A model generated the notes under the pieces. It had not been told where the DNA came from and made no database searches. It saw nothing but the letters and a program-made list of their open reading frames with translations. A stretch of 31,138 bases of DNA from UHGV virus genome UHGV-0171672; one strand, 5' to 3'. Made by a program: the position numbers and the translations under genes. Within the stretch, counting starts at the first letter, position 1, and every line of letters begins with the position of its first letter. Positions 4,124 through 18,649 of the stretch are shown here, piece after piece. This DNA is from a virus.

Positions 4124-4354
4124 ATGAGAACAGCCGAATCACCCGGCAGAGAAATAACCGCCAGACCAGCTAACCATCATGCGCATATCAGCATGGCCGC
4201 AAGAAAAGCCGAGCGTGCACATATCTGCGAATTACTGCGCGAGCTGACTGAGACAGCGAAAGAGACACACACCTGTCCACAGGAAACCTGCGCAGCCATT
4301 GAACGACTGATTGCAATACTCGCCAACCCAGACGAACTGAAGGGGTGCGCATAA
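4124..4354 (+). CDS. Hypothetical protein
   Basis: ATG at 4124 with AGGAG 6 nt upstream; stop overlaps the exonuclease start (TAATG). Confidence 0.55.
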   Translation: MRTAESPGREITARPANHHAHISMAARKAERAHICELLRELTETAKETHTCPQETCAAIERLIAILANPDELKGCA

Positions 4355-4935
4355 TGAACCATCTCATGATTGACACCGAAACACTGGGTAACGGACCGGA
4401 CGCAGCCATATTCGCGATTGGGGCGGTGTTTTTCGACCCGTTCACCGGAAAGCTGGGCAAGCAGTTTGAGAAATTCATCGACCCGGTGGATTCAGAACGC
4501 AACGGCGGAACCGTCAATGCAGCCACCGCTGTATGGTGGGCCGGACAATCCGTGGAAGCCAGAGCCTGCCTGCGCAACGCAGATGGAACAGAGCTGGCAG
4601 CAGTGACCGAATTTCTGGCGTTCATTTCACGCAATATGCATGACGAAAGCCCGGGCAATTCACTGAACATATGGTGTAAGGGCGCATCCTTCGATTTCCC
4701 GATCCTGAAATCCGCCATAACACGCACAGCCGGAGAAAAAAGCATCCCCTGGTGCTACTGGAACGAGCGCTGTATGCGCCCGCTTATCGCCATGGCTGAA
4801 TCAACTGGATGGAAAATGCCAGGCAGATCAGGCAAAGAGACCATTGCTCACACCGCGCTGGGCGACGCCGTTTACCAGGCAAAGGTCGTGTCAGAAATCT
4901 GGCAGCGCTTCACAACACCATTCCTGAACATATGA
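4354..4935 (+). CDS. DEDDh-type 3'-5' exonuclease (DnaQ-like fold)
   Basis: N-terminal MIDTETLG motif and later H...GDA-like motif typical of DEDD exonucleases. Confidence 0.75.
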   Translation: MNHLMIDTETLGNGPDAAIFAIGAVFFDPFTGKLGKQFEKFIDPVDSERNGGTVNAATAVWWAGQSVEARACLRNADGTELAAVTEFLAFISRNMHDESPGNSLNIWCKGASFDFPILKSAITRTAGEKSIPWCYWNERCMRPLIAMAESTGWKMPGRSGKETIAHTALGDAVYQAKVVSEIWQRFTTPFLNI

Positions 4936-4944
4936 GGTGAAGCC

Positions 4945-5172
4945 ATGGTCGCCATCCTGAATGTGTGTTGCTGCCCCCCCCTGAACGTGGAAAGAAAAGC
5001 CCGCGCATCGCTGCGTTTATTCCGCGACGGCGTGCGGAATTTTTCACGCATAAAACCCCACGACTACCTGGTAATAAGAATCGGTTTTCGCTGGCGATTG
5101 CTGAGCAAAAACAACGGGGCGTCATGGGATTTATTAACGCACGAAACCTATAACAAAGAGGCCGCGTTATGA
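4945..5172 (+). CDS. Small hypothetical ORF containing a C8 homopolymer, coupled to dam
   Basis: Strong SD GAGGTGA before ATG 4945; ATGA overlap with dam start; C8 run at 4974-4981. Protein sequence is not obviously globular. Confidence 0.3.
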   Translation: MVAILNVCCCPPLNVERKARASLRLFRDGVRNFSRIKPHDYLVIRIGFRWRLLSKNNGASWDLLTHETYNKEAAL

Positions 5173-6113
5173 GCAAAGAACTGTTATCCGGCACGCCGCT
5201 TAAATGGGTGGGCGGAAAAAGTCGCATCATGAACACACTGAAGGCGCATCTGCCAGAAGCAGACTGCCTGGTTGAGCCGTTTGTGGGTGGCGCATCGGTA
5301 TTCATGAACACCAGTTACAAGCGTTACATCCTGGGTGATTCCAATGGTGCGCTGATTAATTTCTACCGGCAAGCCAGGGACAACACCGACAGCCTGATCG
5401 ACGAGGCGAAAACCCTGTTCCTGAACCACAACAACAGGGGTGACTATCTCATCATTCGCGAAACCTTTAACGCAGAGAATCATGCCTTCCTGAACAGCAG
5501 AACGGGAATAAGCGACCGCCGTGAACTGCGACTGGCCGCCATGTTTTTGTACCTGAACCGACACAGCTTTAACGGTTTGTTCCGCGTGAACGGAAAAGGC
5601 GATTTTAACGTGCCTTTCGGCTGCTACCGCAAGCCCTACTTCCCTGAGCGGGAAATCCGCGCATTTGCAGACAAGGCAAACAGCACCCGAACGCTGCTTA
5701 TCCACGCAGATTTTAAGGATACGCTGAACTCTGCCAGTCACCTGTTCGGCATGGGCAACACGCTTTGCGTGTACTGCGATCCCCCTTACCTGCGATTCAG
5801 TGGCCGGGACAATTTCACCGCCTACGGAAAACCATTCGATGAAGACGAGCACGTTCGTCTGAGGGCAGCGCTTGACCGCCTTTCACAGGAAACGGGCGGC
5901 ATGACCAGCATCACCATATCCAATTCCGACACACCGGAAACCAGACGCATTTATCAGGGTTACCGGATGAACGCCATCCAGGCACCACGAAGCGTTGGCG
6001 CAAGAACCCGGGAATCAGCACCGGAGGTTATCGCCACCCTGAGATGCATCACATCCGCCTTATCAACGGTTCGCACTTCTGCGCCACGAACATGGAAGAA
6101 GTACGCGTGCTGA
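5169..6113 (+). CDS. dam: DNA adenine methyltransferase (Dam-like N6-adenine MTase)
   Basis: KWVGGK AdoMet-binding motif near the N-terminus and catalytic DPPY motif. Confidence 0.9.
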   Translation: MSKELLSGTPLKWVGGKSRIMNTLKAHLPEADCLVEPFVGGASVFMNTSYKRYILGDSNGALINFYRQARDNTDSLIDEAKTLFLNHNNRGDYLIIRETFNAENHAFLNSRTGISDRRELRLAAMFLYLNRHSFNGLFRVNGKGDFNVPFGCYRKPYFPEREIRAFADKANSTRTLLIHADFKDTLNSASHLFGMGNTLCVYCDPPYLRFSGRDNFTAYGKPFDEDEHVRLRAALDRLSQETGGMTSITISNSDTPETRRIYQGYRMNAIQAPRSVGARTRESAPEVIATLRCITSALSTVRTSAPRTWKKYAC

Positions 6114-6141
6114 CAGCAACACGCAATACGGGAGGTAAAGC

Positions 6142-6492
6142 ATGGCAGTGATTTATATCGCCGGTCCCATGACCGGATGCAAAGACCACAACAGGACGGC
6201 ATTTTGCGTGGAGGACCTGAAACTTCGGTGCGCCGGAAACATCGTTCTTAATCCTGCCGTACTGCCTGACGGATTAAGCCAGCAGCAGTACATGAGTATT
6301 TGTATTCCGATGCCCATGTGTGCCGATGCCATTTACTTACTGGATGGATGGGAAGAGTCCGCTGGCGCACGGGCTGAGTACGCAATGGCGCTCAAACTGA
6401 ACATGCCAGTGTCATTCCCGGAAAACCGGGCAGCCGGCGAAACCGTCGCGCAGCTGCTTCACAAATCAAAAGCCGCACAGGCGACTGAGTAA
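6142..6492 (+). CDS. DUF4406-like protein (nucleoside 2-deoxyribosyltransferase-like fold)
   Basis: VIYIAGPMTG ... IVLNPAVLPDGLSQQQYM ... YLLDGWEESAGARAEY pattern matches DUF4406 as I remember it; SD GGAGGT. Confidence 0.7.
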   Translation: MAVIYIAGPMTGCKDHNRTAFCVEDLKLRCAGNIVLNPAVLPDGLSQQQYMSICIPMPMCADAIYLLDGWEESAGARAEYAMALKLNMPVSFPENRAAGETVAQLLHKSKAAQATE

Positions 6493-6930
6493 CCGACCGG
6501 AGATCGAAACATGATTGCGCGCAGAGCTACCAACCGTCTCACAGGCTTTATTCCAGGCAAGGTTGATCATGCACTCCATCACGGGGCTGTCACTTTCCTC
6601 AACAAAGGAGAGGCGCGCAATCATGCATTCCGGGGTGAGCACGTGGCGCTGGCTAATCAGTCTTTGATAGCTAAGCGCCTGCCATTCAGCCTTTTCAGCT
6701 CTGATAGAAAGAGAGGCAGCCATGACCTGCCACACCAGAAAGAGCACCACACTGGCGAAAACAAACGTTGCGCTGTCGCAAAAAATGAATGCGGCAACAA
6801 TCGCAAGGAAAGCGCTAATCCTCAGAACCAAGGAAGCGCGACGGTGGAGAAGGCTTGTCATGTGTTCAAGCCAGTAGCTGTACCACAGGTCAAAAAGAAT
6901 TTCGTAATCAGAAGGGAGCTTATCACTCAT
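6466..6930 (-). CDS. Hypothetical membrane protein, antisense orientation
   Basis: ATG at 6930 (MSDKLPSDYEILF...), two hydrophobic helices; the only plausible coding content in 6.5-7.3 kb. Confidence 0.35.
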   Translation of the reverse strand: MSDKLPSDYEILFDLWYSYWLEHMTSLLHRRASLVLRISAFLAIVAAFIFCDSATFVFASVVLFLVWQVMAASLSIRAEKAEWQALSYQRLISQRHVLTPECMIARLSFVEESDSPVMECMINLAWNKACETVGSSARNHVSISGRLLSRLCGF

Positions 6931-7188
6931 CAGAAACACCCCGCGTATGCAGACAATCACCAGTTGCCAGGTGATATTAATTCGCAACATTCTAACCACA
7001 TCAGCACGCAACACAAAAACCGCTTGCCAGCGCTCGTCGTGTCGGGTTACATTTCCGCTGCACCTCATAAAACGGGTGCCGGGATTTCCACCCCGCTGAC
7101 AAACGAAGCGCACAGCCGCGCCAGCGGTTTTTTTGTGCGTACTGTATCGCCACGTCTTTTTCGCGTCAGAATTATGGCGGGGCGTACA

Positions 7189-7222
7189 GGGCCGACTTCG
7201 GTCGGGCCGGTTTCTTCGTTTG
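7189..7222 (+). terminator. Stem-loop with UUCG-type loop followed by T-rich tract
   Basis: GGGCCGAC-TTCG-GTCGGGCC then GGTTTCTTCGTTT. Confidence 0.3.
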
Positions 7223-7313
7223 CCGGTTGTGGAAACCCTGTACGTCTCGCCACCCTGAGTTTTCCACCTCTGGTTGGTGAGTTTTCAAAATTCACAAACG
7301 AAGAGGCCACACC

Positions 7314-7535
7314 ATGGCAAACCGCAAGCAACAGCGCGCCCGCGCTGAGCGTCTTCACATCCGCAGCGAAATCAACCGCAGACTTTTCCGCGCAACACGC
7401 GTCGCGCAAATCATGCATATCAACATGCTGCATGAGCGCACGCACGCACTATCAAACCGTTACTGCGCTGCTGTCTTCAGCTATCTCGCCGAAGATCTGG
7501 CAGAACTGCAAAGCCTCATCAACCAGCACCGATAA
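7314..7535 (+). CDS. Hypothetical basic protein
   Basis: 73 aa, SD AAGAGG; preceded by a 19-bp near-palindrome at 7277-7295. Confidence 0.55.
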   Translation: MANRKQQRARAERLHIRSEINRRLFRATRVAQIMHINMLHERTHALSNRYCAAVFSYLAEDLAELQSLINQHR

Positions 7536-7603
7536 ACCACATCCGGAAGCTATCCCACACCTGCACGCGGGAGGCTTCCGCACGTCTGTTACCGGAGGTT
7601 CTC

Positions 7604-8020
7604 ATGAAGAGCGTTAAGGGACTTTCAGATATTCAGGACTTCTTTAACTGGATGTGGGCGGTGGATCCCCTGCTGGCTTCCCGCCTGAACAACTGGCACG
7701 ACTATTACCGCCGCGCCTGTAAACAGGCTGCCCGCAGCGTCACCACATACGGGGATTTCTCCTTCACCGTGGACGGTCGTTACCGCGTGGACGTGAAAGG
7801 TGACGGTGATGGCTTTGGTTTATTTCACATCAACGGCACCGACAGTACCGCCATCAGCTGGTCATCGTCAGAGATGGCACTGGTTCTGGAAATGACAACC
7901 CACAGCGTGGCCGTGAAAGGCATATACACCGCAGAAGACTTTATCGGTGAATACCAGCGCCTTCTCGTGCTGTACCGCGCGGCGTTTCAGGAGGTCACTG
8001 GCGGGGAGTACGACGCATGA
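7604..8020 (+). CDS. Hypothetical protein upstream of A
   Basis: 138 aa, SD GGAGG; ATGA overlap with A. Confidence 0.6.
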   Translation: MKSVKGLSDIQDFFNWMWAVDPLLASRLNNWHDYYRRACKQAARSVTTYGDFSFTVDGRYRVDVKGDGDGFGLFHINGTDSTAISWSSSEMALVLEMTTHSVAVKGIYTAEDFIGEYQRLLVLYRAAFQEVTGGEYDA

Positions 8021-10530
8021 GTGACCGCAATGCACAGCTGGCGTACCCGTGGAACGCACCGCTACCGGTTATCGATCCTGAAACGTTCGGCAGAGCACAA
8101 CCAACCGCATTACGCCAGGCCATTCAGAGCTACATCAACGAGGACATTCGCATTGATGCCAGACTGGATGAAGAAACCGTCTCCTTCCTGACAAACACAG
8201 ACGAAGGCAAGCGAATTAATTCGCATCTTCACCACGACGAAGAGCGTCGGGTCAGACTGGAAAAACTGGCGAAGCACAAACGCGAGAATCCGCCCACGGT
8301 GGTATCGGAAGCCATGGCAGAACTTCGCGCCCTGCCCTCGTTTCTTGGCAACGTGCTCATTCGTGATCTGGCGCGTTTAAACCGCAAACAACAAAGCGCC
8401 CGCAATGAAGGCGTGAAAAACAACAACACTCACGTGGCCGATAACTTCGTTCGCCGTGGACTGCGCACACGCCTGAAACGCATCGAACAGGTGAATGAAT
8501 GCTTCGCCACGACGGCATTCAAAGCCACCGCAGCGCGTCATCGCCTTGATGAATTACTCATGCTGCCACAACTCAACCGTGATCAAATTCAGCGCCTTGC
8601 CACACTAACGGCGGCGGCATTTTCCACCGAACTGGAACGCATATGTGATGAAGTTACTGAGCGGACAGGAAAAGGCGACGATAACCTGTTTACCTGGTTG
8701 CTGACTTACCAGCAGCTGGCGCGCATGGCAATAAAACTGGGCGTGAACCCACCATACTGGCCGTCACTCGAGATCAGACGTGACCGCCGCACGGCACCAG
8801 ACCCTGAACTGGTACCGGGTGCGGTAATGCGTATCACCTGCGCCACCTGGTGGAACAACCAGCTGCGCCACCTCGCTGATCTCTGGCGGGAGGAATTACT
8901 GCGTGCCGCCGGAAGAGTATCGCGCAAGGCATCCCCCTACATCAGCCATGAGTCACTCCAGGAATTCCGGGAGAAACGCCAGCGCACCCGTGATTTTCTC
9001 AAAAGCTGGGACATTGAAAACGAAGACGGTGAACGCTTGAGTCTGGAGGACGTGTACTGGTCAGGGCTGGGGAATCCGCGCAACCGCCGCAACGAGATGA
9101 TGGCCTGCGTCAGAGGGATGGAACAGGTCGCCGAATCGCGTGGTGACTCCGCGTTCTTCGTGACAGTAACCTGCCCTTCCCGCTTTCACAGCGTGAACGA
9201 GGACGGCAGCCTGAACCCGAAATACAACGGTGCCACCGTGCGCGATGCCAGTGATTATCTGGTTTACGACGTCTTTGCAGCTGCAAGAAAAAAACTCAAC
9301 AAAGAAGGCCTGAGCTGGTACGGGGTGCGCACCGTTGAGCCACACCATGACGGCACACCGCACTGGCACATGCTGGTATTCACCGCCCCGGACAATGAAG
9401 AACGCATCATTGAAATCATGCGTGACGCAGCAATCAAATCAGATCGCGCAGAACTGGGGAATGATATTTCTCCGCGCTTCAAGTGCGAAAAAATCGACCC
9501 GGCAAAAGGCACACCGGCAAGCTACATCGCAACCTATATTGGCAAGAACCTGGACGCCAGCACCTTTCACGACAATGACCCGAAAACCGGCAAACCTTAC
9601 GCCGATAAAGAATCGGGAAAAACCATGGCGGAAACCGTGGAAAACGCCATTGCCTGGGCGAGTCTCCACCGCATCCGGCAGTTCCAGTTCTTCGGTATCC
9701 CGCCCCGACAGGTATGGCGTGAACTCCGCCGCCTTGCCGGACAAATGGAGCGTAACCCCGCATCACCGAAGCGCCTGGACCATGACGACATTGACGCCAT
9801 TCTGGCCGCCGCTGACGTGGGGTGTTTTGCCACCTACATCAACCGTCAGGGCGGCGTGCTCATTCCACGCAACCTGTACCTGATCCGCACCGCATACGAA
9901 ACCGCAGATGAGGCCAACGACTACGGCGAATTCCCGCAGCGCATCTACGGAATTTGTGCCCCGTCGCTCGGCGAGCGCTACACCATCTGTACCCATCCGG
10001 ACGAATGGAAACTGGTCAGAAAAGAAGCGAAATCCGACAACAGCACGGACGAGGGTTTTGACGTTGGGGGCGGCTTCGCCGCACCTTGGACTCGTGGCAA
10101 TAACTGTCCCCATGATGAAAAAACAGACACCGGAGAGGGTAAAAACCCACCACCGGAAACCAGGAAAGAACAAAAACTGGTCGTCCCGGGAGGTGATTTG
10201 GGTGAGTGGTTAAGGTCACTGACCCCCACAAAGCGAAAACAACTCACCAGGCAGCTGAAAGATGCGCCATCTGACACAAAAACCGTGAAAACCGGCGGCC
10301 CCACCACGCCCGATGACGTCATACATGTGCGTACAGCATTGCCGCTGACTGACGTCACCACCACCGTAATCAAGTCGGCACTGAGCGCGACGGGCGAGGA
10401 GCTACACAGTGGCGCAGCACTTTCCGTACACAGAGGTGCACGCGTTCGCCTGCCTGACGGGCGGATTGTGCACTGGGATGAGAAATCACGAAGCCTGGTG
10501 GCAGCAGATCAACCGGAGGTGAACCCATGA
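8017..10530 (+). CDS. A: Rolling-circle replication initiation endonuclease (P2 gpA-like)
   Basis: HUH motif TPHWHMLVF and paired tyrosines YIATYIGK; 837 aa. Confidence 0.9.
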   Translation: MSDRNAQLAYPWNAPLPVIDPETFGRAQPTALRQAIQSYINEDIRIDARLDEETVSFLTNTDEGKRINSHLHHDEERRVRLEKLAKHKRENPPTVVSEAMAELRALPSFLGNVLIRDLARLNRKQQSARNEGVKNNNTHVADNFVRRGLRTRLKRIEQVNECFATTAFKATAARHRLDELLMLPQLNRDQIQRLATLTAAAFSTELERICDEVTERTGKGDDNLFTWLLTYQQLARMAIKLGVNPPYWPSLEIRRDRRTAPDPELVPGAVMRITCATWWNNQLRHLADLWREELLRAAGRVSRKASPYISHESLQEFREKRQRTRDFLKSWDIENEDGERLSLEDVYWSGLGNPRNRRNEMMACVRGMEQVAESRGDSAFFVTVTCPSRFHSVNEDGSLNPKYNGATVRDASDYLVYDVFAAARKKLNKEGLSWYGVRTVEPHHDGTPHWHMLVFTAPDNEERIIEIMRDAAIKSDRAELGNDISPRFKCEKIDPAKGTPASYIATYIGKNLDASTFHDNDPKTGKPYADKESGKTMAETVENAIAWASLHRIRQFQFFGIPPRQVWRELRRLAGQMERNPASPKRLDHDDIDAILAAADVGCFATYINRQGGVLIPRNLYLIRTAYETADEANDYGEFPQRIYGICAPSLGERYTICTHPDEWKLVRKEAKSDNSTDEGFDVGGGFAAPWTRGNNCPHDEKTDTGEGKNPPPETRKEQKLVVPGGDLGEWLRSLTPTKRKQLTRQLKDAPSDTKTVKTGGPTTPDDVIHVRTALPLTDVTTTVIKSALSATGEELHSGAALSVHRGARVRLPDGRIVHWDEKSRSLVAADQPEVNP

Positions 10531-10931
10531 CACGATTCCATTGTGTACTCCAGCACCATGATTTCAGCGCCATCATGAGTGGACGCATTCCGGCACTGAC
10601 GCTGAGCGGCGTCAGTGTTCGACCACAGCCAGGCGACGAACTGGAGATCACGATCGCAAACCCCGATCGCAGCACAGATACCGTCATGACCGACATCCTG
10701 ACTGCAAGAACCAACACCGACAGAAGCGCATTCATCGTTGCCGTGCGCCCTCGTCGCGCCATATCAGAGCCTGAACCACTGACTCCCGTAGGAAAAATCA
10801 TGCAGGCATACCACGAAAAACAGAACAGAAAACTCAACGAAGAACTGGCAAGAACGCTGGCCGTCGTTAACCGAAAAGCGGCAATTGTCAGCTATGTGCA
10901 TTCGGCCGCCAGCAGGCAATCACGCAGGTAA
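10527..10931 (+). CDS. Hypothetical protein
   Basis: ATGA overlap with A, SD GGAGGT. Confidence 0.6.
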   Translation: MTRFHCVLQHHDFSAIMSGRIPALTLSGVSVRPQPGDELEITIANPDRSTDTVMTDILTARTNTDRSAFIVAVRPRRAISEPEPLTPVGKIMQAYHEKQNRKLNEELARTLAVVNRKAAIVSYVHSAASRQSRR

Positions 10932-11845: not shown

Positions 11846-11886
11846 GTTACCCTTAGCAGCGAGGGTAACACAGGATTTCTTTTTTC
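11846..11886 (+). terminator. Rho-independent terminator ending the rightward early operon
   Basis: GTTACCC-N10-GGGTAAC stem followed by ACAGGATTTCTTTTTTC. Confidence 0.6.
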
Positions 11887-12592
11887 AGTCAAACCGAAAT
11901 CGGCCGCTTGTCGCGTATGCATAGGTGACCACCGCACCCAGCGCATTCACACGCTTCTTCACATAAATCACATTACCATCCTGATAGTCACCGTATGGGT
12001 AGCAAATAAAGATTGTTTTTTGCAAATCAGGATCATCAACAAATGCCCCTGAACAACTTTTTGAGCTACCGCGACTGTACTCATAGGGAGCGGAATAGAA
12101 TGAATCTTCACCCGGAAGAAAATATATCAGCGTAACCAGGAGGGTAAACAGAATCATCCAGGTAAGAAGGCACATACCCGAAAAAAACTTAAGATACGAT
12201 GTAACCCCGGTAAATTTAGACCGATCAACCAGGTTCTTTTTCAACAGGCACAGTGAGACAAAAACCGAAAGCACCACAGACACTGAAACAAGGCAGTTTG
12301 TCGTGAACGAATAAAGGTAGGTAATTCTGTAAACATCGTTTCGCCACCAAATAAAAAGAAAAATCCCCCCCAAAACAGAAAGCGTGACAAAAGTTAAATA
12401 AGGATATGAGTAATTTTTCACAGTTCTCACCCGGCAGTCTCCCACTGACTCAGACAGATGAATATCATCACCACCTGCCACAAAAAATCGCAAGATCAAA
12501 ACTACACAAAAGCGCACGAAATTGCACAATTTTTCTAATGTACTTTTTCCCCATTCCGCCCGGTAACGGCGCTGGCTGAGGCCGGTTTGCAC
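11885..12592 (-). CDS. Multi-TM membrane protein (cargo island, module 2); start uncertain
   Basis: At least three hydrophobic helices plus a ~80-aa C-terminal soluble region. The first ~25 codons of the track ORF overlap promoter-like repeat copy A, so a downstream GTG (12421 or 12430, after GGGTGAG) is the more likely start. Confidence 0.5.
   Translation of the reverse strand: MQTGLSQRRYRAEWGKSTLEKLCNFVRFCVVLILRFFVAGGDDIHLSESVGDCRVRTVKNYSYPYLTFVTLSVLGGIFLFIWWRNDVYRITYLYSFTTNCLVSVSVVLSVFVSLCLLKKNLVDRSKFTGVTSYLKFFSGMCLLTWMILFTLLVTLIYFLPGEDSFYSAPYEYSRGSSKSCSGAFVDDPDLQKTIFICYPYGDYQDGNVIYVKKRVNALGAVVTYAYATSGRFRFD
12511..12576. repeat. Promoter-like direct repeat, copy A
   Basis: agcgcacgaaattgcacaatttttctaatgtactttttcccc... 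aligns at ~75% identity (hand alignment) with 15438-15501. Confidence 0.5.
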
Positions 12593-12759
12593 GGTGCACG
12601 AAAAACGAGGCGAGTAGTGGATGAGTAAAAATTAATAATAAGTATAAGCAATGTCGATAAACCAAGACACAACAAGTATTCAACACAATTAATCATGCAC
12701 GTGCAAATAGCAATAACATTAACACATTATTTATATAAAAACAATCTGATATTATTTCG

Positions 12760-12790
12760 GTTGTGGGCTTGGTATTTTCAAACCCACAAC
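12760..12790 (-). terminator. Perfect 8-bp stem hairpin downstream of the three-gene module (non-canonical terminator candidate)
   Basis: GTTGTGGG-N15-CCCACAAC, 35 nt past the stop of the 263-aa gene in an AT-rich spacer; no clean U-tract. Confidence 0.25.
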
Positions 12791-12824
12791 AATAATATTA
12801 TTTCGAGATATTAAACATAGACAA

Positions 12825-13616
12825 TCACCCTATTTTTCTATGCATTTTCATGAGTTCCCTTATTAAGCTAGCATGAAAGATTGATACATCAGAAATCCTT
12901 GTATCAATAGATGAATCAATATTATCAGAAACCTTTTGCTCAAATAAATCGCAGATACCATCAAGTGACTCAATATCTTTTTCCAACTTAGAAAAACCCT
13001 TAAATAGATATAATGAATCCCTTAACTCCCCAAGCTTTGAAAATAGTTGGCTATCTAGTAATGATATAAATTCATCAGAGGGAAGCCCCATCGCATCCTT
13101 AAAATCTTCCGTAACTTCAAAAGCTAATCCATTAATTTTAGGGAGAATAACTTCTCGTAACCAATACCCTTCGTTTATAGCTTCATTTCTTCCTTTATAA
13201 TGCTGCCACAAAGGAACCCCTACAGATGCAATTAGCGCAATAATTGAAATTGCTATAGAGTACCATTCAGGTCCTGATTCAGGAACTCTAACGATATTAT
13301 AGAGATTCCCCGATGAGGTTGAGGGGTAATATCCATTCAGAACATAATTATCAGGTTTATCATAAAGAAGGTGCGGTGTAAACTTCCTTTCATAACTATT
13401 GCATAATTTTAGATCGCTATTTTTTCCAATGCATATATCAGCATTAAAAATGTTTCCACTCTTTGGTTCTATTACGTGAGACTCTGAATTTTGCGAATCC
13501 ATGTTAGACGCGGTTCTTTCTAGATATGTCGCAGAGCAAGCGGATATATTAACAAAAAAAATGACAGGCAATGCTGTCATTTTAAAAACAGAACACAAAT
13601 CAGAAGAACGGAACAT
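12825..13616 (-). CDS. Lipoprotein-like membrane protein with internal TM helix (cargo island)
   Basis: N-terminus MFRSSDLCSVFKMTALPVIFFVNISAC has a lipobox-like ISAC; internal helix WYSIAISIIALIASVGVPLW; 17-nt overlap with the upstream gene. Confidence 0.6.
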   Translation of the reverse strand: MFRSSDLCSVFKMTALPVIFFVNISACSATYLERTASNMDSQNSESHVIEPKSGNIFNADICIGKNSDLKLCNSYERKFTPHLLYDKPDNYVLNGYYPSTSSGNLYNIVRVPESGPEWYSIAISIIALIASVGVPLWQHYKGRNEAINEGYWLREVILPKINGLAFEVTEDFKDAMGLPSDEFISLLDSQLFSKLGELRDSLYLFKGFSKLEKDIESLDGICDLFEQKVSDNIDSSIDTRISDVSIFHASLIRELMKMHRKIG

Positions 13617-13944
13617 TTCGATGTAATCCTCTTCTCACAGCCCTATCCAGCTCAGAAAGCATTCCTTCTTTATAATTCACTCCATCTAAAGATGTTCTGC
13701 TATAAAATTCATTCGGAGATGAAAAAAGAGGCAATATATTCTCTAGCATACCCAAAAAGTATGAGCTTGACACAACCACACCATTCGGAATTGATAGAAA
13801 AATCCTATCATTGTTATCAAAAGTAAAGCGATCTATGCCAAAGAAACTATATGCCTTGCGACCATTATCACGCCCAGCAAATAATTTCTTGCCGCCATCT
13901 TTAACTAATTTATTGAAATCTATATAAATATTTGCCATTTTCAT
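13600..13944 (-). CDS. Small STAS-like (DUF4325-like) protein, partner of the GHKL ATPase
   Basis: 114 aa; segment IFLSIPNGVVVSSSYFLGMLENIL resembles the SSSF-type motif of DUF4325/STAS proteins; SD GAGGAA; 11 nt after the ATPase stop. Confidence 0.55.
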   Translation of the reverse strand: MKMANIYIDFNKLVKDGGKKLFAGRDNGRKAYSFFGIDRFTFDNNDRIFLSIPNGVVVSSSYFLGMLENILPLFSSPNEFYSRTSLDGVNYKEGMLSELDRAVRRGLHRNVPFF

Positions 13945-13955
13945 TTACCTATTCC

Positions 13956-15332
13956 TCAGGTTCTTTGAGTTGCATTTTCCGGTAAAGGAAAACGTATATT
14001 AATCATAACTCCCGGAAAACGGGCTTTCTGCATACACTTAAGATAGGTACGATCTGGTTCAGATTCAAGCCCTGTATTATTAAATGGATAAGTGAATTTG
14101 TCACTTTGGTTATCTAACGTTTGCTTTTTCAACTTATAAGAACCATCAAAGTTTATATGTGTGCATCCAGAAATTAAAGACATTCTGATGTTTCCACTTA
14201 GTTCTTTGGATAGTTCTTTTAAACTATCATGCATATCCTGGAAAAACTTCAATAGCTCAATGGTTCCCGTACCAGAACTATCTGTCTCCGTTTCATTTTT
14301 ACAACTAACCCGCCCCTGCAAAGCAGCGACTGTAATCAAACCTTCTCTAAACATCCCTTTTTTATTTATGTGTTTTTCCACATAAGGGATTATGTGATTG
14401 TTATATGAATAATGTTCTAAAGAAAGTCCTGAAAAAGTTTCATCAATAGTTTTTCCAAAGTTAAAAACAGCTATTTCACATGTTGGCTGTTTTAAGCCAT
14501 TATTTACAAACCCCCTCAAATACCAACGCGGACGCTGCTCAAGCCCACAATGTCTCTCTGCATTATCAAGTAATTCGCCCATGCAAGATGTTAGATGGTT
14601 TTCTGCCTTGCTAACTAATTTTAATTGATGATCACTTAGACACTCGTTTATATAATTAGTGAATTTCTCAGACATTCTATTTTTGGTATCTTGTGCAAAT
14701 GCAGACGCATTTTCCTTGCCGATACTATCAGCAGAGAATATTCTTTTCTTAGGGTTATCTTTTTTCGATTTTTCTGTTTCATCATGCACCTTCCCTGGCG
14801 TCACTTTATTTATTTCTTTAACCAACCCGATGTCACGAATAATTTCTAAATATTTTTCATCCTTCGGATAAATGCCATTAAGTTGTACTTGAGCATCTTT
14901 TAAATTTATATTGTGACGTTTGGCTGAGCTCAGTGCAACACCAAGGAGACATTCCGCACCTAAACAATGCTTTTTATTTTTAGTATAATCAAGCAAATAT
15001 GATTTACGTTTACCCCTGGCAATCAATCTAGTTACACCATGAATAAACAAAAGAGATTTTTCTGGATGATCAAACAAATCGAAATATTTAGGTATTATTA
15101 TTCTATCTTCTTTGCGACGAAGAGTTGCAGTATCATATTTCTTTACGGATGAAATACTTTCAATAAAAGTAGCCACCTGACTTTTCACTGGTGTTACTTC
15201 GTCAGAAAAATGTAACCTTTCATAGGCTTTATATTTAATTCTTCTTTTATTTTTTCTCTCAACGCCTTTTAAAAAGCGAATCCAACCACGTAAAAAGCGT
15301 TTTCTTGCATCCTTTTTATCTATTTTTTTCAC
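13956..15332 (-). CDS. GHKL-type (histidine-kinase-like) ATPase with basic N-terminal domain
   Basis: N-box ELLDNAERH (encoded around 14551-14577) and Gly-rich DSSGTGTIELL; GTG start at 15332 after AAGGTGA; K/R-rich ~240-aa N-terminal region. Confidence 0.7.
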   Translation of the reverse strand: MKKIDKKDARKRFLRGWIRFLKGVERKNKRRIKYKAYERLHFSDEVTPVKSQVATFIESISSVKKYDTATLRRKEDRIIIPKYFDLFDHPEKSLLFIHGVTRLIARGKRKSYLLDYTKNKKHCLGAECLLGVALSSAKRHNINLKDAQVQLNGIYPKDEKYLEIIRDIGLVKEINKVTPGKVHDETEKSKKDNPKKRIFSADSIGKENASAFAQDTKNRMSEKFTNYINECLSDHQLKLVSKAENHLTSCMGELLDNAERHCGLEQRPRWYLRGFVNNGLKQPTCEIAVFNFGKTIDETFSGLSLEHYSYNNHIIPYVEKHINKKGMFREGLITVAALQGRVSCKNETETDSSGTGTIELLKFFQDMHDSLKELSKELSGNIRMSLISGCTHINFDGSYKLKKQTLDNQSDKFTYPFNNTGLESEPDRTYLKCMQKARFPGVMINIRFPLPENATQRT

Positions 15333-15799: not shown

Positions 15800-16843
15800 T
15801 CAGCTGGCACCATCCTGAAGCAGCGAATAGGGATTAAAGCGCATCACTTCAACCCCAAGCCATTCATTGACATGCTTCATCGCTTCCATGACCGGTTGCA
15901 ACTCGTTGATGAAAAATACCCTCGCCGCCTTCTCAACGTCACCGAACGCCGCGTTCCCGTCAGGCATTGCCCCCATCAGCTGAGGCGGTACACGGTGAGC
16001 CGCAAGGATATCGTCGCGGGTACCCCCCTTGATGTTAAGGAATTCGTCCTTCGCGGTGATTTGCTGGAACGGCAGTATTTGCACACCATCCTTGCCGCCA
16101 CCTGGCGCGTGCAGAAGGATATTGCGGAACGCCCCCTTGCCACGGGATTCCGTGAGTGTTTTCTTGATGGCTTCCACGCTTTCAGCGTTTGCCTGGGCGG
16201 CACCAACATAGACAATGCACCCGGCATGTGAACCGTTGTCATAGTAGAGCTTGCGGAACGTATCCGCTGAGTTCGACAGACTCACCGACAGCAACCCACC
16301 GATATACTCCGGCATCCCGTAGATTTCCTGGTTGATATCGGGGTTCAGAACGTGGCACACAGCCCCCTTACGGAAAGCAAATTCAGAACCATCATCATTG
16401 AGGTACCAGTACGTATCGAGATCACTGCCCCGCCGCGTGTATTTCGCCAGCGCAGGACGAAGCGCAATGGGTTCACCGAACTTGTTGCGGCGGACTTCAA
16501 GATAGGCATTACCGAACACGAACCAGTCCAGCGCAAACGCGGAAAACGCCTGGCGGGACAGTAGCGGATGAGGAACAAAGCAGCCGTTCAGGGCATTACG
16601 CTTAAAATACAGGGCCGACTGGTGCCATGATGCACGACGCGAGGCGCGAGCAATGGCATTCCAGTCCATGGGGGTGTCATAGTAGCGGCCATTATCGGCG
16701 CACGACATGTTATCAAGCAGATCAAGACGGCTTGCTTCATAAGGACCGTCAAACGTGAAAGCACTGAGTGACGGCGCTGATTTCAGTGCATCAGCCAGTG
16801 AGCCCGTGCCGCGCTTTCCGGTGTATTTTTTACGTTTACTCAT
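15800..16843 (-). CDS. Q: Portal protein (P2 gpQ-like)
   Basis: 347 aa at the P2 Q position; sequence recognisable as P2-family portal; 5-nt gap after P. Confidence 0.9.
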   Translation of the reverse strand: MSKRKKYTGKRGTGSLADALKSAPSLSAFTFDGPYEASRLDLLDNMSCADNGRYYDTPMDWNAIARASRRASWHQSALYFKRNALNGCFVPHPLLSRQAFSAFALDWFVFGNAYLEVRRNKFGEPIALRPALAKYTRRGSDLDTYWYLNDDGSEFAFRKGAVCHVLNPDINQEIYGMPEYIGGLLSVSLSNSADTFRKLYYDNGSHAGCIVYVGAAQANAESVEAIKKTLTESRGKGAFRNILLHAPGGGKDGVQILPFQQITAKDEFLNIKGGTRDDILAAHRVPPQLMGAMPDGNAAFGDVEKAARVFFINELQPVMEAMKHVNEWLGVEVMRFNPYSLLQDGAS

Positions 16844-16848
16844 TGTGT

Positions 16849-18582
16849 TCAGAACTCCATTGCAAAGCCACGATTATCCTCACGCTCTGCGCCGATTGGC
16901 TCATTGATAACAGCAAGCATGGTTGCCCAGGCGAGATCACCATGACTGACACCGCGTGAGCGGTCAGTGTCATAGGTGATATAGCCGCCGGGCGTCTGTA
17001 TTTTTCGCACCGATGCAAAGGCCTGTACCAGGTCGCGCTCGCTGCGGTCATACTCCCAGCGTCCGGCACGGACCACCTGAAGCATCTTCATGACCAGCGC
17101 CCGCTTTGAAGCGATATTAAAGTTATACGGAACAGCCAGGGGGAAGAATTTTTTCACTATCTGATAAACCCCTTCCCCGTTCCCGCCGGTGACATCAATC
17201 CCGATATGCTTCACATTGTATTTTTGGGTGTACTCCTCAATCAGGGCCGCCTGCTGTTCAAACTCCATGCCCTGAACCCTGACGGTTTCCACCGTACGAA
17301 AACGCCCACCGGCAACAAGGGGTGGCACGCACACCGACAGCGCCCCGCAGTCCCCCTTCCCGCTGCTGCCGTTGGCGTCATACCCGAGCCAGACTTCCCT
17401 CACCCCCATAGGGCGGACAGCAAAAGGCTTCCAGTCCGGCCATTCGTCATAGCCATCAACACCGCACCCGACGAGCGTATTCAGACTGAAGGCTGCCTCA
17501 CCATCACGGACAAATTCGCACATGTACAGATTGCGAAATTCACTTTCTGTATTTTCGCCGCGAATATCATCAATACTGGTGAACTGCCATCCGTTAGCGA
17601 CAGCATCCTCAATGGTGACAATCTGCCGCCACGTTTTGTCGGGAAAGAGCACGCCCCTCTTCAGGTGAGCATGTGAAACATCAAACTCACTGCGTTTTGA
17701 GCGTGGCTGTTCGCTGTTCCAGCGGTCCCCCGTCCAGAACTGATACGCCTCATGCATTTCCCCCGACGGCGTCGAGAAGTAAGTGCGCGTAAGCCCTTCC
17801 AGGGTCGCCATTGCCCCGGCAACCTTCCTGAGGTTCACAAAGTTACTGACCCAGAAAAATTCGTCGAATTTAAGATGACCGGTATAGGACTGCGCGGTGG
17901 CAGCTGACGTACCGAGGAAGTGCAGCTCCGCGCCGTTGGACAGCACGATCTTGTCGCCCCCTTTCAGCTCAACATCCACTTCCAGCGCCGCCTGCTGAAT
18001 AAAATGCTTGAACTGATACGCCTGACGACGGGAGGCGGACAAAAATATCTGGTTGCGCTGATACCCGGCGGAGACGTCATCACGCAGTGCATCAAGGAGC
18101 GCCTCGCGCGCAAAATACCAGGTCGCACCAATCTGACGCGACTTCAGGATCATACGGTTGCGGTGGTGACGGTTTTCGTACCATTCACGTTGATGCCACG
18201 CCAGCGTCGGGAGGATTTTTTCACGAAGCGCGACAATCTGTTCTTCGGTGAAGTGATTTTTCAGTCTGCGTTTACGGGGCTTTTTACCGGAAACGGCCTG
18301 TTCTCCCTGACCGTCATTCAGTTTTTTCAGCTGGCGCGTGAGAAGGTCAATTTCCTTAAAATCGCTGCCGCTTTTCTCTGTTTTTGTGGTGAGCTGGATC
18401 AGGCGCGCATCAATGGACTGGGTGACCCGCTGGATCGGAGGTGTGGCATCCCACTCATCGCGTTTTTTCCATGAGTAAATCGTGTTCTGGCTGATCCCCA
18501 TCAGTTGCGAGATTTCCGCAGGTGTGTACCCTTGCCAGTAAAGTTGTCTTGCCCTTATGCGGACAAATGCATCCTGAATCAT
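16849..18582 (-). CDS. P: Terminase large (ATPase) subunit (P2 gpP-like)
   Basis: ATG at 18582 (MIQDAFVRIRARQLYWQGYTPAEIS...) preceded by AAGGGGG; the track start at 18627 is an upstream alternative. Confidence 0.9.
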   Translation of the reverse strand: MIQDAFVRIRARQLYWQGYTPAEISQLMGISQNTIYSWKKRDEWDATPPIQRVTQSIDARLIQLTTKTEKSGSDFKEIDLLTRQLKKLNDGQGEQAVSGKKPRKRRLKNHFTEEQIVALREKILPTLAWHQREWYENRHHRNRMILKSRQIGATWYFAREALLDALRDDVSAGYQRNQIFLSASRRQAYQFKHFIQQAALEVDVELKGGDKIVLSNGAELHFLGTSAATAQSYTGHLKFDEFFWVSNFVNLRKVAGAMATLEGLTRTYFSTPSGEMHEAYQFWTGDRWNSEQPRSKRSEFDVSHAHLKRGVLFPDKTWRQIVTIEDAVANGWQFTSIDDIRGENTESEFRNLYMCEFVRDGEAAFSLNTLVGCGVDGYDEWPDWKPFAVRPMGVREVWLGYDANGSSGKGDCGALSVCVPPLVAGGRFRTVETVRVQGMEFEQQAALIEEYTQKYNVKHIGIDVTGGNGEGVYQIVKKFFPLAVPYNFNIASKRALVMKMLQVVRAGRWEYDRSERDLVQAFASVRKIQTPGGYITYDTDRSRGVSHGDLAWATMLAVINEPIGAEREDNRGFAMEF

Positions 18583-18649
18583 TGACGCCCCCTTGCTGTT
18601 TGATCTCAAGAGTAAACGCCCGCGCATTCATCCAGGTATCCGGTGCCAT

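Follow-up and report, generated by a model that had tools for sequence, protein, structure and literature searches.

Two adjacent genes, encoding a Dam methyltransferase and a DUF4406 protein, form part of the early operon in a P2-like prophage of E. coli. On the balance of the evidence these are two separate accessory genes, one for an orphan Dam predicted to act at GATC and the other for a putative (d)NMP N-glycosidase, rather than an obligate pair. The genes were found in a stretch of 31,138 nucleotides (UHGV virus genome UHGV-0171672), which will subsequently be referred to as the window.

The dam–DUF4406 locus

The locus is an ordinary piece of P2-like prophage in which both genes are real and have been annotated previously, RefSeq already carrying the names 'DNA adenine methylase' and 'DUF4406 domain-containing protein'. 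Both genes have an undisrupted open reading frame (ORF) and a good ribosome-binding site, and the 28 nt spacer between them contains the sequence GGGAGG (Table 1). They lie on one strand between cox and gene A, in agreement with the early-operon placement proposed in the first-pass annotation. The neighbourhood of dam consists of an exonuclease gene, a 75-aa ORF and DUF4406. The order exonuclease–dam–DUF4406 is found again in P2-like relatives, and the 75-aa ORF upstream of dam is kept in close relatives. This small ORF has no match in NCBIfam, its 'ParE family toxin-like protein' label being taken from the RefSeq annotation of a 99.3% identical locus. A 368-aa ORF across the apparent gap at 6511-7617 was rejected as a gene, as a third-position substitution bias is absent.

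Table 1. Features of the dam–DUF4406 region, with positions in the window.
Feature	Position	Strand	Evidence
Rv2179c-like DEDDh 3'-5' exonuclease, upstream in the same early operon	4345..4935	+	Pfam PF16473, E 2.5e-51
75-aa ORF, stop overlapping the dam start (ATGA)	4945..5172	+	RefSeq: 'ParE family toxin-like protein'
Dam-family (D12 class) N6-adenine DNA methyltransferase, 314 aa, predicted GATC-specific	5169..6113	+	PF02086, TIGR00571, 2g1p alignment
KWVGGK motif, aa 12-17, includes equivalent of EcoDam K9	5202..5219	+	
DPPY catalytic motif IV, aa 204-207	5778..5789	+	Aligned to EcoDam D181-Y184
Junction of 480-bp deletion relative to close relatives, 4-nt microhomology CTGA	6039..6044	+	blastn
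Shine-Dalgarno GGGAGG, 6 nt 5' of the DUF4406 ATG	6130..6135	+	Sequence read directly
DUF4406 protein, 116 aa, minimal NDT/DNPH1/MilB superfamily member, predicted N-glycosidase	6142..6492	+	
S73-x-G75-A76-x-x-E79 motif, predicted catalytic Glu and phosphate-binding Ser by DNPH1/Rcl analogy	6358..6378	+	

An orphan Dam methyltransferase

The Dam protein scores above threshold against both PF02086 (E 1.1e-51; 176.4 bits, cutoff 22) and TIGR00571 (226.9 bits, cutoff 114.85), the Pfam and TIGRFAM families that it shares with E. coli Dam, T4 Dam and P1 Dam (D12 class, alpha group). It aligns full length to E. coli Dam (EcoDam, pdb 2g1p; E 2.4e-52), with 42.6% identity over 256 aligned residues. 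The host-Dam equivalog NF008152 is not reached (218.8 bits, cutoff 441), and the protein is a phage paralogue rather than the product of chromosomal dam.

The KWVGGK and DPPY motifs by which the gene was first recognized are both present within this profile-matched protein. The SAM-binding motif I (FxGxG) is represented by FVGGAS at aa 38, which aligns to FVGAGS in EcoDam. The EcoDam residues K9, R95, N120, L122, R124, N126, P134 and Y138 are all conserved in the alignment; among the residues checked the only changes are Y119 to F and R137 to C. From the EcoDam–DNA structure, K9, N120, L122, R124, P134 and Y138 are presumably the residues that contact GATC, and the specificity of the phage enzyme is predicted from its sequence to be GATC.

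Scans with Pfam, NCBIfam or PADLOC detected no restriction-enzyme domain in the flanking ORFs or in the ORFs scanned from the variable island, a low-GC region (11885-15332) containing four ORFs. Three of these were also searched against PDB sequences, which revealed no restriction partner. A cognate endonuclease adjoining the methyltransferase, as in a type II restriction-modification system, is thus absent from the locus, a situation like that of phage orphan Dams. The best PADLOC model for Dam is 'orphan methyltransferase', and strain S19-651 contains the same dam region at 99.3% identity together with hotspot cargo that differs. Since no restriction enzyme was found and this near-identical prophage has other cargo at the hotspot, Dam is an orphan, as had been proposed from the lack of a restriction enzyme gene nearby.

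Given the properties of known phage orphan Dams, the suggested anti-restriction or regulatory role is reasonable. The enzyme would methylate the adenine of GATC on replicating phage DNA, supplementing host Dam such that packaged genomes are fully methylated. Full methylation could in turn protect the DNA from GATC-sensitive restriction, affect phage regulation, or both. A regulatory GATC cluster is not supported by the site statistics: the count is 94 against 119-134 expected, with no strong avoidance, and the C/cox control region contains no GATC.

A recent deletion abuts the two genes

The first-pass annotation had placed DUF4406 directly downstream of dam. This is the case in the window, but the arrangement is derived, and is due only to a recent 480-bp deletion. 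The deletion was mapped by blastn of the window against three close relatives (L187, L188 and L190). Positions 4900-6042 of the window correspond to 2732-3874 of L187 and positions 6039-6600 to 4355-4916, at an identity of 99.6-99.8%. In most close relatives two small ORFs lie between dam and DUF4406, and the deletion takes out the Cys-rich C-terminal tail of Dam, a 78-aa ORF and the 5' half of a 72-aa ORF. The latter is unrelated to the 72-aa ORF of lambdoid loci, the equal length being coincidental. E. coli genome matches from H74 onward similarly align in two pieces, the alignment spanning ~485 more bases in the record than in the query (4,286 compared with 3,801).

The Cys-rich tail is an addition in the relatives of this Dam that distinguishes them from E. 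coli Dam and the phage orphan Dams, and it has been lost in this copy. The native Dam sequence ends at approximately aa 292, after which the ~34 last residues of the 326-aa full-length allele are replaced by 22 out-of-frame residues. As the deletion begins past the last residues aligned to EcoDam (query 290 is equivalent to EcoDam 267 of 278), it leaves the catalytic domain intact. Copies with the deletion, 98.4-99.3% identical, occur in IMG/VR contigs as well as in three complete E. coli genomes.

Structure and conserved motif of the DUF4406 protein

The DUF4406 protein consists of a single domain of 116 aa with a core of ~95 residues and four predicted strands. It matches the DUF4406 profile PF14359 with 108.6 bits (cutoff 22), the match extending over positions 2-90 of the 91 in the profile. 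Searches by sequence with HMMER, using either the single sequence or a 35-sequence profile, revealed no PDB relatives, and only fold searches were successful. The AlphaFold model is confident, has the flavodoxin-like fold of nucleoside 2-deoxyribosyltransferase (NDT), and matches only the NDT/DNPH1/MilB superfamily, which bears out the NDT-like fold that had been suggested for the protein. The closest solved folds are MilB and DNPH1, both of which act on nucleoside monophosphates.

The motif S73-x-G75-A76-x-x-E79 contains the candidate active-site residues. A set of 35 close homologues shares S73 and E79 without exception, and across 52 family members that are more divergent the S, G, A and E of the motif do not vary. 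E79 lies in a helix (74-85) following a strand (63-66); its putative equivalence to NDT E98 and Rcl E93 is by motif spacing, not superposition. On the same spacing we take S73 and E79 to correspond to Rcl S87 and E93, and to NDT D92 and E98. The family is very large (18,519 clusters at 50% identity, E<=1e-3), and this, together with the invariance of S73, G75, A76 and E79 in divergent members, indicates that DUF4406 is, as judged from sequence conservation, an enzyme rather than a decoy. The loci examined are those of phages and prophage-like regions, and among 52 longer members of the family a second Pfam domain is almost never present.

Comparison with the characterized superfamily members reveals several differences. 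DUF4406 is smaller than DNPH1/Rcl (2'-deoxynucleoside 5'-phosphate N-hydrolase) and MilB/BcmB (CMP/hmCMP N-glycosidases), to which HMMER detects no sequence similarity, and the general-acid Asp of NDT and Rcl has no obvious counterpart. With respect to NDT (PF05014), the equivalent of Asp92 is replaced by Ser and the C-terminal residues given by the partner subunit are not evident. The label 'nucleoside 2-deoxyribosyltransferase', common in databases, is unsupported. In the window protein residue 58 is Pro, whereas Leu occupies this position in at least 90% of homologues. Literature searches found neither a functional study of DUF4406 nor a description of it as an anti-defence protein.

Linkage of DUF4406 to DNA methylases

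The pairing of dam with DUF4406 was initially taken as a hint of a joint function in nucleotide metabolism or DNA modification, to be checked by co-occurrence in prophages. The linkage itself is kept across divergent P2-like phages, and a P2-like subgroup has the order dam–DUF4406–C5 methylase. Other methylase families also adjoin DUF4406: a C5 methylase in N15, PF05869-type Dam and MT-A70-like methylases in lambdoid loci, methylases in the actinophages Island3 and Nadeem, and large PF01555 methylases in prophages of Clostridia and Actinobacteria (L264, L270 and L273). However, two close relatives (L193 and L194) have dam without DUF4406, gene A sits between dam and DUF4406 in a Sodalis locus (L246), and at many DUF4406 loci methylases are absent to a distance of 4 kb.

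Among 30 clusters from IMG/VR and phage loci, 9 have DUF4406 next to a methylase, with at least five methylase families represented, compared with 2.75 expected (P ~4e-4 in a local permutation against other genes of the same loci). Five of the methylase-adjacent clusters are P2-like, and the excess is therefore inflated by shared ancestry. In loci sampled at one genome per species the methylase frequency is 6/150 at ±1 gene and 5/136 at ±4 genes, such that there is no excess at the adjacent position; a Pfam census was used for this sample because a seed-based methylase detector under-called. A general adjacency of DUF4406 to methylases was rejected, being confounded by P2-like ancestry and not reproduced against the ±4 control. 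The linkage stands for P2-like phages, and the step from linkage to joint function is only partly supported: dam and DUF4406 are co-transcribed but are no obligate functional pair.

A possible role in nucleotide-pool control and its alternatives

The most likely role of DUF4406 is that of a stand-alone (d)NMP N-glycosidase in a phage nucleotide-pool toolkit, as suggested by its neighbours and fusions. DUF4406 is adjoined by a dUTPase in Vibrio phage 1.017.O and, in mycobacteriophage Gaia, by MazG followed by a dATP/dGTP diphosphohydrolase; MazG is near DUF4406 in MiaZeal, as is a pyrophosphatase in Chelms. Two viral proteins (A0A6J5LQ71 and A0A6J5S4N9) have a DUF4406-like domain fused to a dATP/dGTP diphosphohydrolase domain, BFVD being the sole source of informative fusions. 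The enzyme would cleave the N-glycosidic bond of a (deoxy)nucleoside 5'-monophosphate via a covalent Glu79 intermediate, and may work in nucleotide-pool control after the dNTP pyrophosphohydrolases.

In Riah and MiaZeal, PAPS-reductase-like genes adjoin DUF4406. The PAPS-reductase-like family includes DNA-modification enzymes (DndC-like).

The methylase adjacency could nevertheless reflect real coupling, and the loss of the native Dam C-terminus and the presence of Pro58 could mean that either protein is impaired. That DUF4406 has a task tied to DNA methylation, whether the destruction of methylated dNMPs or one half of a retron trigger–blocker pair, is unlikely, although it would explain why a protein of ~100 aa lies beside D12, C5, PF05869, MT-A70-like and PF01555 methylases in unrelated phages. 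In the former case DUF4406 would hydrolyse methylated dNMPs (N6-methyl-dAMP and 5-methyl-dCMP) derived from methylated DNA, so blocking their salvage and random re-incorporation, in parallel with the action of DNPH1 on hmdUMP and of MilB on hmCMP. The unrelatedness of the adjoining methylase families, the permutation result, the PAPS-reductase-like neighbours, and the preference of the nearest solved folds for modified nucleotides are consistent with such sanitation. It is nonetheless improbable, given the P2-like ancestry behind the permutation result, the lack of a ±1 excess in the species-dereplicated control and the many DUF4406 genes with no methylase nearby; furthermore, large-scale DNA degradation is rare for temperate phages. 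Adjacency to any methylase family would be accounted for by an S-adenosylhomocysteine/MTA-type nucleosidase that clears the product inhibitor of SAM-dependent methyltransferases, and cleavage of an N-glycosidic bond is typical of the fold family. This is the least credible of the alternatives, as it leaves the dNTP pyrophosphohydrolase, dUTPase and PAPS-reductase-like neighbours and fusions unexplained, E. coli already has Pfs/MtnN, and a Ser at the inferred DNPH1 phosphate-binding position suggests a 5'-phosphate substrate. It is also quite unlikely that the window simply contains a decaying copy, in which a truncated Dam, an L58P DUF4406 or both are inactive prophage remnants. The replaced Dam C-terminus and Pro58 would fit such decay, but the catalytic domain of Dam is undamaged, the variant persists in several genomes at high identity, and both reading frames, their ribosome-binding sites and the AF2 model appear sound.

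Retrons provide a further possible connection to methylation. Retron-Sen2 is triggered when Dam (of E. coli, Salmonella or P1) methylates a GATC site in its msDNA, and racC-recE has been described as a linked blocker–trigger gene pair (preprint 10.1101/2020.06.22.160242). Similarly, Ec86 is triggered by phage Dcm, its NDT-like effector depleting adenine derivatives (preprint 10.1101/2023.08.16.553469). The effectors of type II-A retrons are NDT-like, and the retron literature assigns RcaT of Sen2 and the Ec86 effector to the broad superfamily of DUF4406 (PMC7736814). Phage DNA methyltransferases, which act as the defence trigger for retron effectors, are for DUF4406 a genomic neighbour. It is conceivable, if very unlikely, that DUF4406 neutralizes or reverses an NDT-like effector unleashed by msDNA methylation through a phage Dam or Dcm; the shared fold superfamily, the recurrence beside diverse methylases and the racC-recE parallel would fit this. 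The top structural matches of DUF4406 do not include retron effectors, and the protein also lacks their C-terminal DNA-binding domain. DUF4406 is not itself a type II-A retron effector, having no match in PADLOC and only a single domain, and the Rfam scan of the window returned isrK and C4 only.

The more useful results concern DUF4406 itself. The family combines a confidently predicted NDT/DNPH1/MilB-like fold with a motif that is invariant and looks catalytic, and experimental characterization was not found for it. Judged from its neighbours and fusions, it may be a (d)NMP N-glycosidase that acts after dNTP pyrophosphohydrolases, which is a concrete and inexpensive biochemical hypothesis. 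More speculatively, the recurrent but non-obligate proximity of DUF4406 to methylases may represent a testable link to retron biology.

Prophage context and the early operon

The window is a P2-like prophage. Beyond the integrase and repressor genes it encodes a Cox-like protein, followed by a plus-strand early operon of which replication gene A is the last gene. On the 3' side of gene A lie SSB, a low-GC island and two ORFs whose counterparts in the near-identical prophage of E. coli strain S19-651 are annotated as portal and terminase. The segment 4300–8100 is 96–99% identical to E. coli prophages, and at least 80% of it is present in 27 of 5,426 complete genomes; in S19-651 its counterpart is inserted beside nadA. 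The RefSeq names read, in order, '3'-5' exonuclease', 'ParE family toxin-like protein', 'DNA adenine methylase', 'DUF4406 domain-containing protein' and 'replication endonuclease'. The 75-aa ORF bearing the second of these names is kept in close relatives; it had no match in an NCBIfam search and no antitoxin-like partner is evident. GATC sites are mildly under-represented in the window (94 against 119–134 expected) and none was found in the C/cox control region.

Features of the prophage discussed in the text
Feature	Position	Strand	Remarks
Integrase	194-1201	minus	
C-type HTH repressor	1256-1618	minus	
75-aa ORF	4945-5172	plus	stop overlaps dam start codon (ATGA)
dam	5169-6113	plus	314 aa
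Deletion junction	about 6039-6044		4-nt microhomology CTGA; comparison with relative locus L187
Shine-Dalgarno GGGAGG	6130-6135		strong, DUF4406 gene's own; from sequence
DUF4406 gene	6142-6492	plus	116 aa
368-aa ORF	6511-7617	plus	rejected as gene
isrK	7060-7134	plus	Rfam, 64.1 bits
C4 antisense RNA	7170-7257	plus	Rfam, 82.1 bits
73-aa ORF	7314-7535	plus	directly 3' of C4; phage P88 counterpart annotated 'derepression protein' (phrog_3688)
Replication gene A	8017-10530	plus	PF05840, E 1.9e-108
Densest GATC cluster	10507-10665		4 sites/160 bp; gene A 3' end and next ORF start
Low-GC island	11885-15332	minus	35% GC (vs about 55%); P2 cargo hotspot between SSB and portal genes
Portal counterpart ORF	15800-16843		
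Terminase counterpart ORF	16849-18627		

Tandem Rfam matches to isrK and C4 antisense RNA, both above the gathering score, fall in the roughly 1.1-kb gap 3' of the DUF4406 gene. Together with the 73-aa ORF they look like a P1/P7-style c4-antirepressor immunity module inside a P2-like early operon. The 368-aa ORF that runs across them remains open in several relatives and is unannotated in RefSeq; it has no third-codon-position substitution bias (e.g. 58/48/40), so it was rejected as a gene.

The Dam methyltransferase

The first-pass annotation had placed a Dam gene with KWVGGK and DPPY motifs here and, seeing no cognate restriction gene nearby, called it an orphan; the Dam assignment is correct. 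The product scores E 1.1e-51 against PF02086 and 226.9 bits against TIGR00571 'dam', whose cutoff is 114.85, with KWVGGK at residues 12–17, FVGGAS at residue 38 and DPPY at residues 204–207. E. coli Dam (EcoDam, 2g1p) aligns with it end to end (E 2.4e-52, 42.6% identity over 256 residues). EcoDam K9, R95, N120, L122, R124, N126, P134 and Y138, which contact GATC in the EcoDam–DNA structure, are all conserved, the sole changes among the residues checked being Y119 to F and R137 to C; GATC specificity is therefore strongly predicted for the window enzyme. It is not the chromosomal dam equivalog, scoring 218.8 bits on NF008152, where the cutoff is 441.

Its orphan status was likewise borne out. 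The genes around dam encode a DEDDh exonuclease, the 75-aa ORF and DUF4406; no restriction-enzyme domain was found in any ORF scanned with Pfam, NCBIfam or PADLOC, and the top PADLOC model for Dam is 'orphan methyltransferase'. The sole unexplained genes in the search for a restriction partner were the four ORFs of the low-GC island (235, 263, 114 and 458 aa), which gave no Pfam, NCBIfam or PADLOC matches (0/4) and no PDB-sequence matches (0/3 searched). In the S19-651 prophage, 99.3% identical over 4300–8100, the hotspot holds only 235-aa and 167-aa hypothetical ORFs, and Dam is therefore not tied to the island cargo of the window. The island itself is a candidate for uncharacterised defence cargo.

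A deletion brings dam and DUF4406 together

Close Dam relatives (85–99% identity) match the window protein only over its residues 1–292. Their usual gene order is Dam (326 aa), a 78-aa ORF, a 72-aa ORF and DUF4406, the 326-aa Dam bearing a Cys-rich, zinc-ribbon-like tail (CDxCGRHGGGYCPDC). Relative to L187, whose flanks are 99.6–99.8% identical, exactly 480 bp are missing from the window, removing the Dam tail, the 78-aa ORF and half of the 72-aa ORF. Dam residues 293–314 thus come from what is left of the 72-aa ORF, read out of frame, and the direct abutment of the two genes is a derived state, which corrects the impression of a tight native dam–DUF4406 pair. The last residue aligned to EcoDam is 290 (EcoDam 267 of 278) and the deletion, which starts beyond it, leaves the catalytic domain whole. 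The allele with the deletion recurs in three complete E. coli genomes.

Linkage of DUF4406 to methylases

The first-pass annotation had read the pairing as a functional hint and proposed a co-occurrence analysis, which was run in four samples. The first was centred on DUF4406 and comprised 168 loci drawn from IMG/VR and phage records, which fall into 30 clusters when DUF4406 is grouped at 85% identity. A DNA methylase directly abuts or overlaps DUF4406 in 9–12 of these clusters: D12 Dam in P2-like phages, C5 in N15, a PF05869-type Dam, MT-A70-like enzymes and beta-class enzymes in mycobacteriophage Island3. Against a local null of other genes from the same loci, adjacency was seen in 9 clusters with 2.75 expected (P about 4e-4), five of the nine being P2-like and of common ancestry. 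The P2-like phages keep the order exo–dam–DUF4406 down to a gpA identity of 31%, and in some a C5 methylase is inserted straight after DUF4406. Of 19 deposited phage lineages, three (N15, Island3, Nadeem) have a methylase at ±1, five have one within ±2 and six within ±3; four (1.017.O, Gaia, MiaZeal, Chelms) have a dNTP pyrophosphatase or dUTPase within ±2, and two (Riah, MiaZeal) a PAPS-reductase-like gene at −1. In 80 loci from a one-genome-per-species collection, methylases make up at least 6 of 150 immediate neighbours, including large PF01555 enzymes in Clostridia and Actinobacteria prophages, versus at least 5 of 136 genes four positions off, both counts being lower bounds from a census of the 25 commonest families. 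Finally, DUF4406 lies downstream of Dam in 10 of 12 Dam-centred loci and is absent in two (L193 and L194).

Our reading is that DUF4406 and methylases both belong to an early/replication accessory module. Tight pairs arose repeatedly in some lineages. Linkage between the two is facultative, and with shared ancestry and neighbourhood taken into account no enrichment of immediate adjacency can be demonstrated.

N15-like phages and a subgroup of P2-like phages share a unit of DUF4406 and a C5 cytosine methylase whose stop and start codons overlap; in the P2-like subgroup it is inserted between dam–DUF4406 and gene A. The loci concerned are L002 (phage N15 genes 57–58) and, from IMG/VR, L096–L102 and L109. 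Their C5 enzymes are 45–47% identical, a pattern suggestive of a mobile cassette of two genes.

Fold and predicted activity of DUF4406

The gene directly downstream of dam encodes a DUF4406 protein as proposed (PF14359, E 2.1e-31). The family comprises 18,519 clusters at 50% identity (E ≤ 1e-3) and occurs in 459 deposited phage genomes with Vibrio, Arthrobacter, Gordonia, Mycobacterium, Pseudomonas and enterobacterial hosts; literature searches returned no functional study. Sequence searches, including one with a 35-sequence profile, detected no related PDB chain. The AlphaFold2 model computed from the 35-sequence alignment is confident (pLDDT 89.7, pTM 0.84), and all of its top 50 Foldseek matches in the PDB are nucleoside 2-deoxyribosyltransferases (NDTs), DNPH1/Rcl, MilB, BcmB or unnamed relatives. 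The model therefore upholds the NDT-like fold called by the first-pass annotation.

Y5, P9, M10, N17, R18, W70, S73 and E79 are invariant among close homologues, and S73, G75, A76 and E79 remain so in 52 more divergent members. The S-x-G-x-x-x-E motif shares its spacing with S87...E93 of Rcl, where the Ser binds the 5'-phosphate, and D92...E98 of NDT. This spacing, as distinct from a superposition, points to a nucleoside monophosphate as the likely substrate and to Glu as the likely nucleophile. Codon 58 (6313–6315) encodes Pro at a position occupied by Leu in at least 90% of 35 homologues; it falls within a predicted short helix (56–59) and could be a mildly damaging substitution.

Neighbours of DUF4406 genes include dUTPase, MazG and dATP/dGTP diphosphohydrolase. 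In mycobacteriophage Gaia (L176, gp125–127) the order is DUF4406–MazG–dATP/dGTP diphosphohydrolase. Two proteins of uncultured phages (BFVD A0A6J5LQ71 and A0A6J5S4N9) fuse a DUF4406-like domain, 34–36% identical, to a dATP/dGTP diphosphohydrolase N-terminal domain. A PAPS-reductase-family gene lies directly upstream of DUF4406 in the unrelated Riah (L086, Pseudomonas phage) and MiaZeal (L179, mycobacteriophage); the MiaZeal DUF4406 gene is labelled 'MazG-like pyrophosphatase', apparently in error.

Possible roles of DUF4406

That a motif of catalytic type is invariant favours an enzymatic role, and the nearest solved folds, MilB and DNPH1/Rcl, are nucleoside-monophosphate N-glycosidases. In the putative pathway dNTP would be converted to dNMP, which DUF4406 would cleave to free base and deoxyribose 5-phosphate; this two-step route is the most economical reading. 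Within the nucleotide-pool toolkit of phages, DUF4406 is probably a (d)NMP N-glycosidase. Proximity to methylases would gain meaning if DUF4406 instead sanitized methylated dNMPs, much as DNPH1 acts on hmdUMP and MilB on hmCMP, though this role seems unlikely. An SAH-nucleosidase role would be very unlikely and leaves the pyrophosphatase neighbours unexplained.

DUF4406 might also be an NDT-like blocker of retrons that travels with methylases. Retron-Sen2 is triggered by Dam methylation of a GATC site in its msDNA (10.1101/2020.06.22.160242) and Ec86 by phage Dcm (10.1101/2023.08.16.553469), both toxic effectors are NDT-like (PMC7736814; 10.1101/2023.08.16.553469), and racC–recE is a documented linked blocker–trigger pair (10.1101/2020.06.22.160242). 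However, DUF4406 matches no PADLOC model, retron effectors are absent among its top structural matches, its catalytic motif is conserved, and the sole anti-retron protein surfacing in the literature search, T5 Rad, is unrelated; such a role would be improbable. Decay of the window copy, with its truncated Dam and its Pro58 at a nearly invariant Leu position, is possible and not favoured.

Both Dam and DUF4406 are known families already annotated, so the novelty is low; the first-pass observation is confirmed and its interpretation partly supported. Taken as a whole, we consider the picture of Dam and the predicted N-glycosidase reasonably probable, and what is gained for this very large and uncharacterised family of phage proteins is a hypothesis concrete enough to test.
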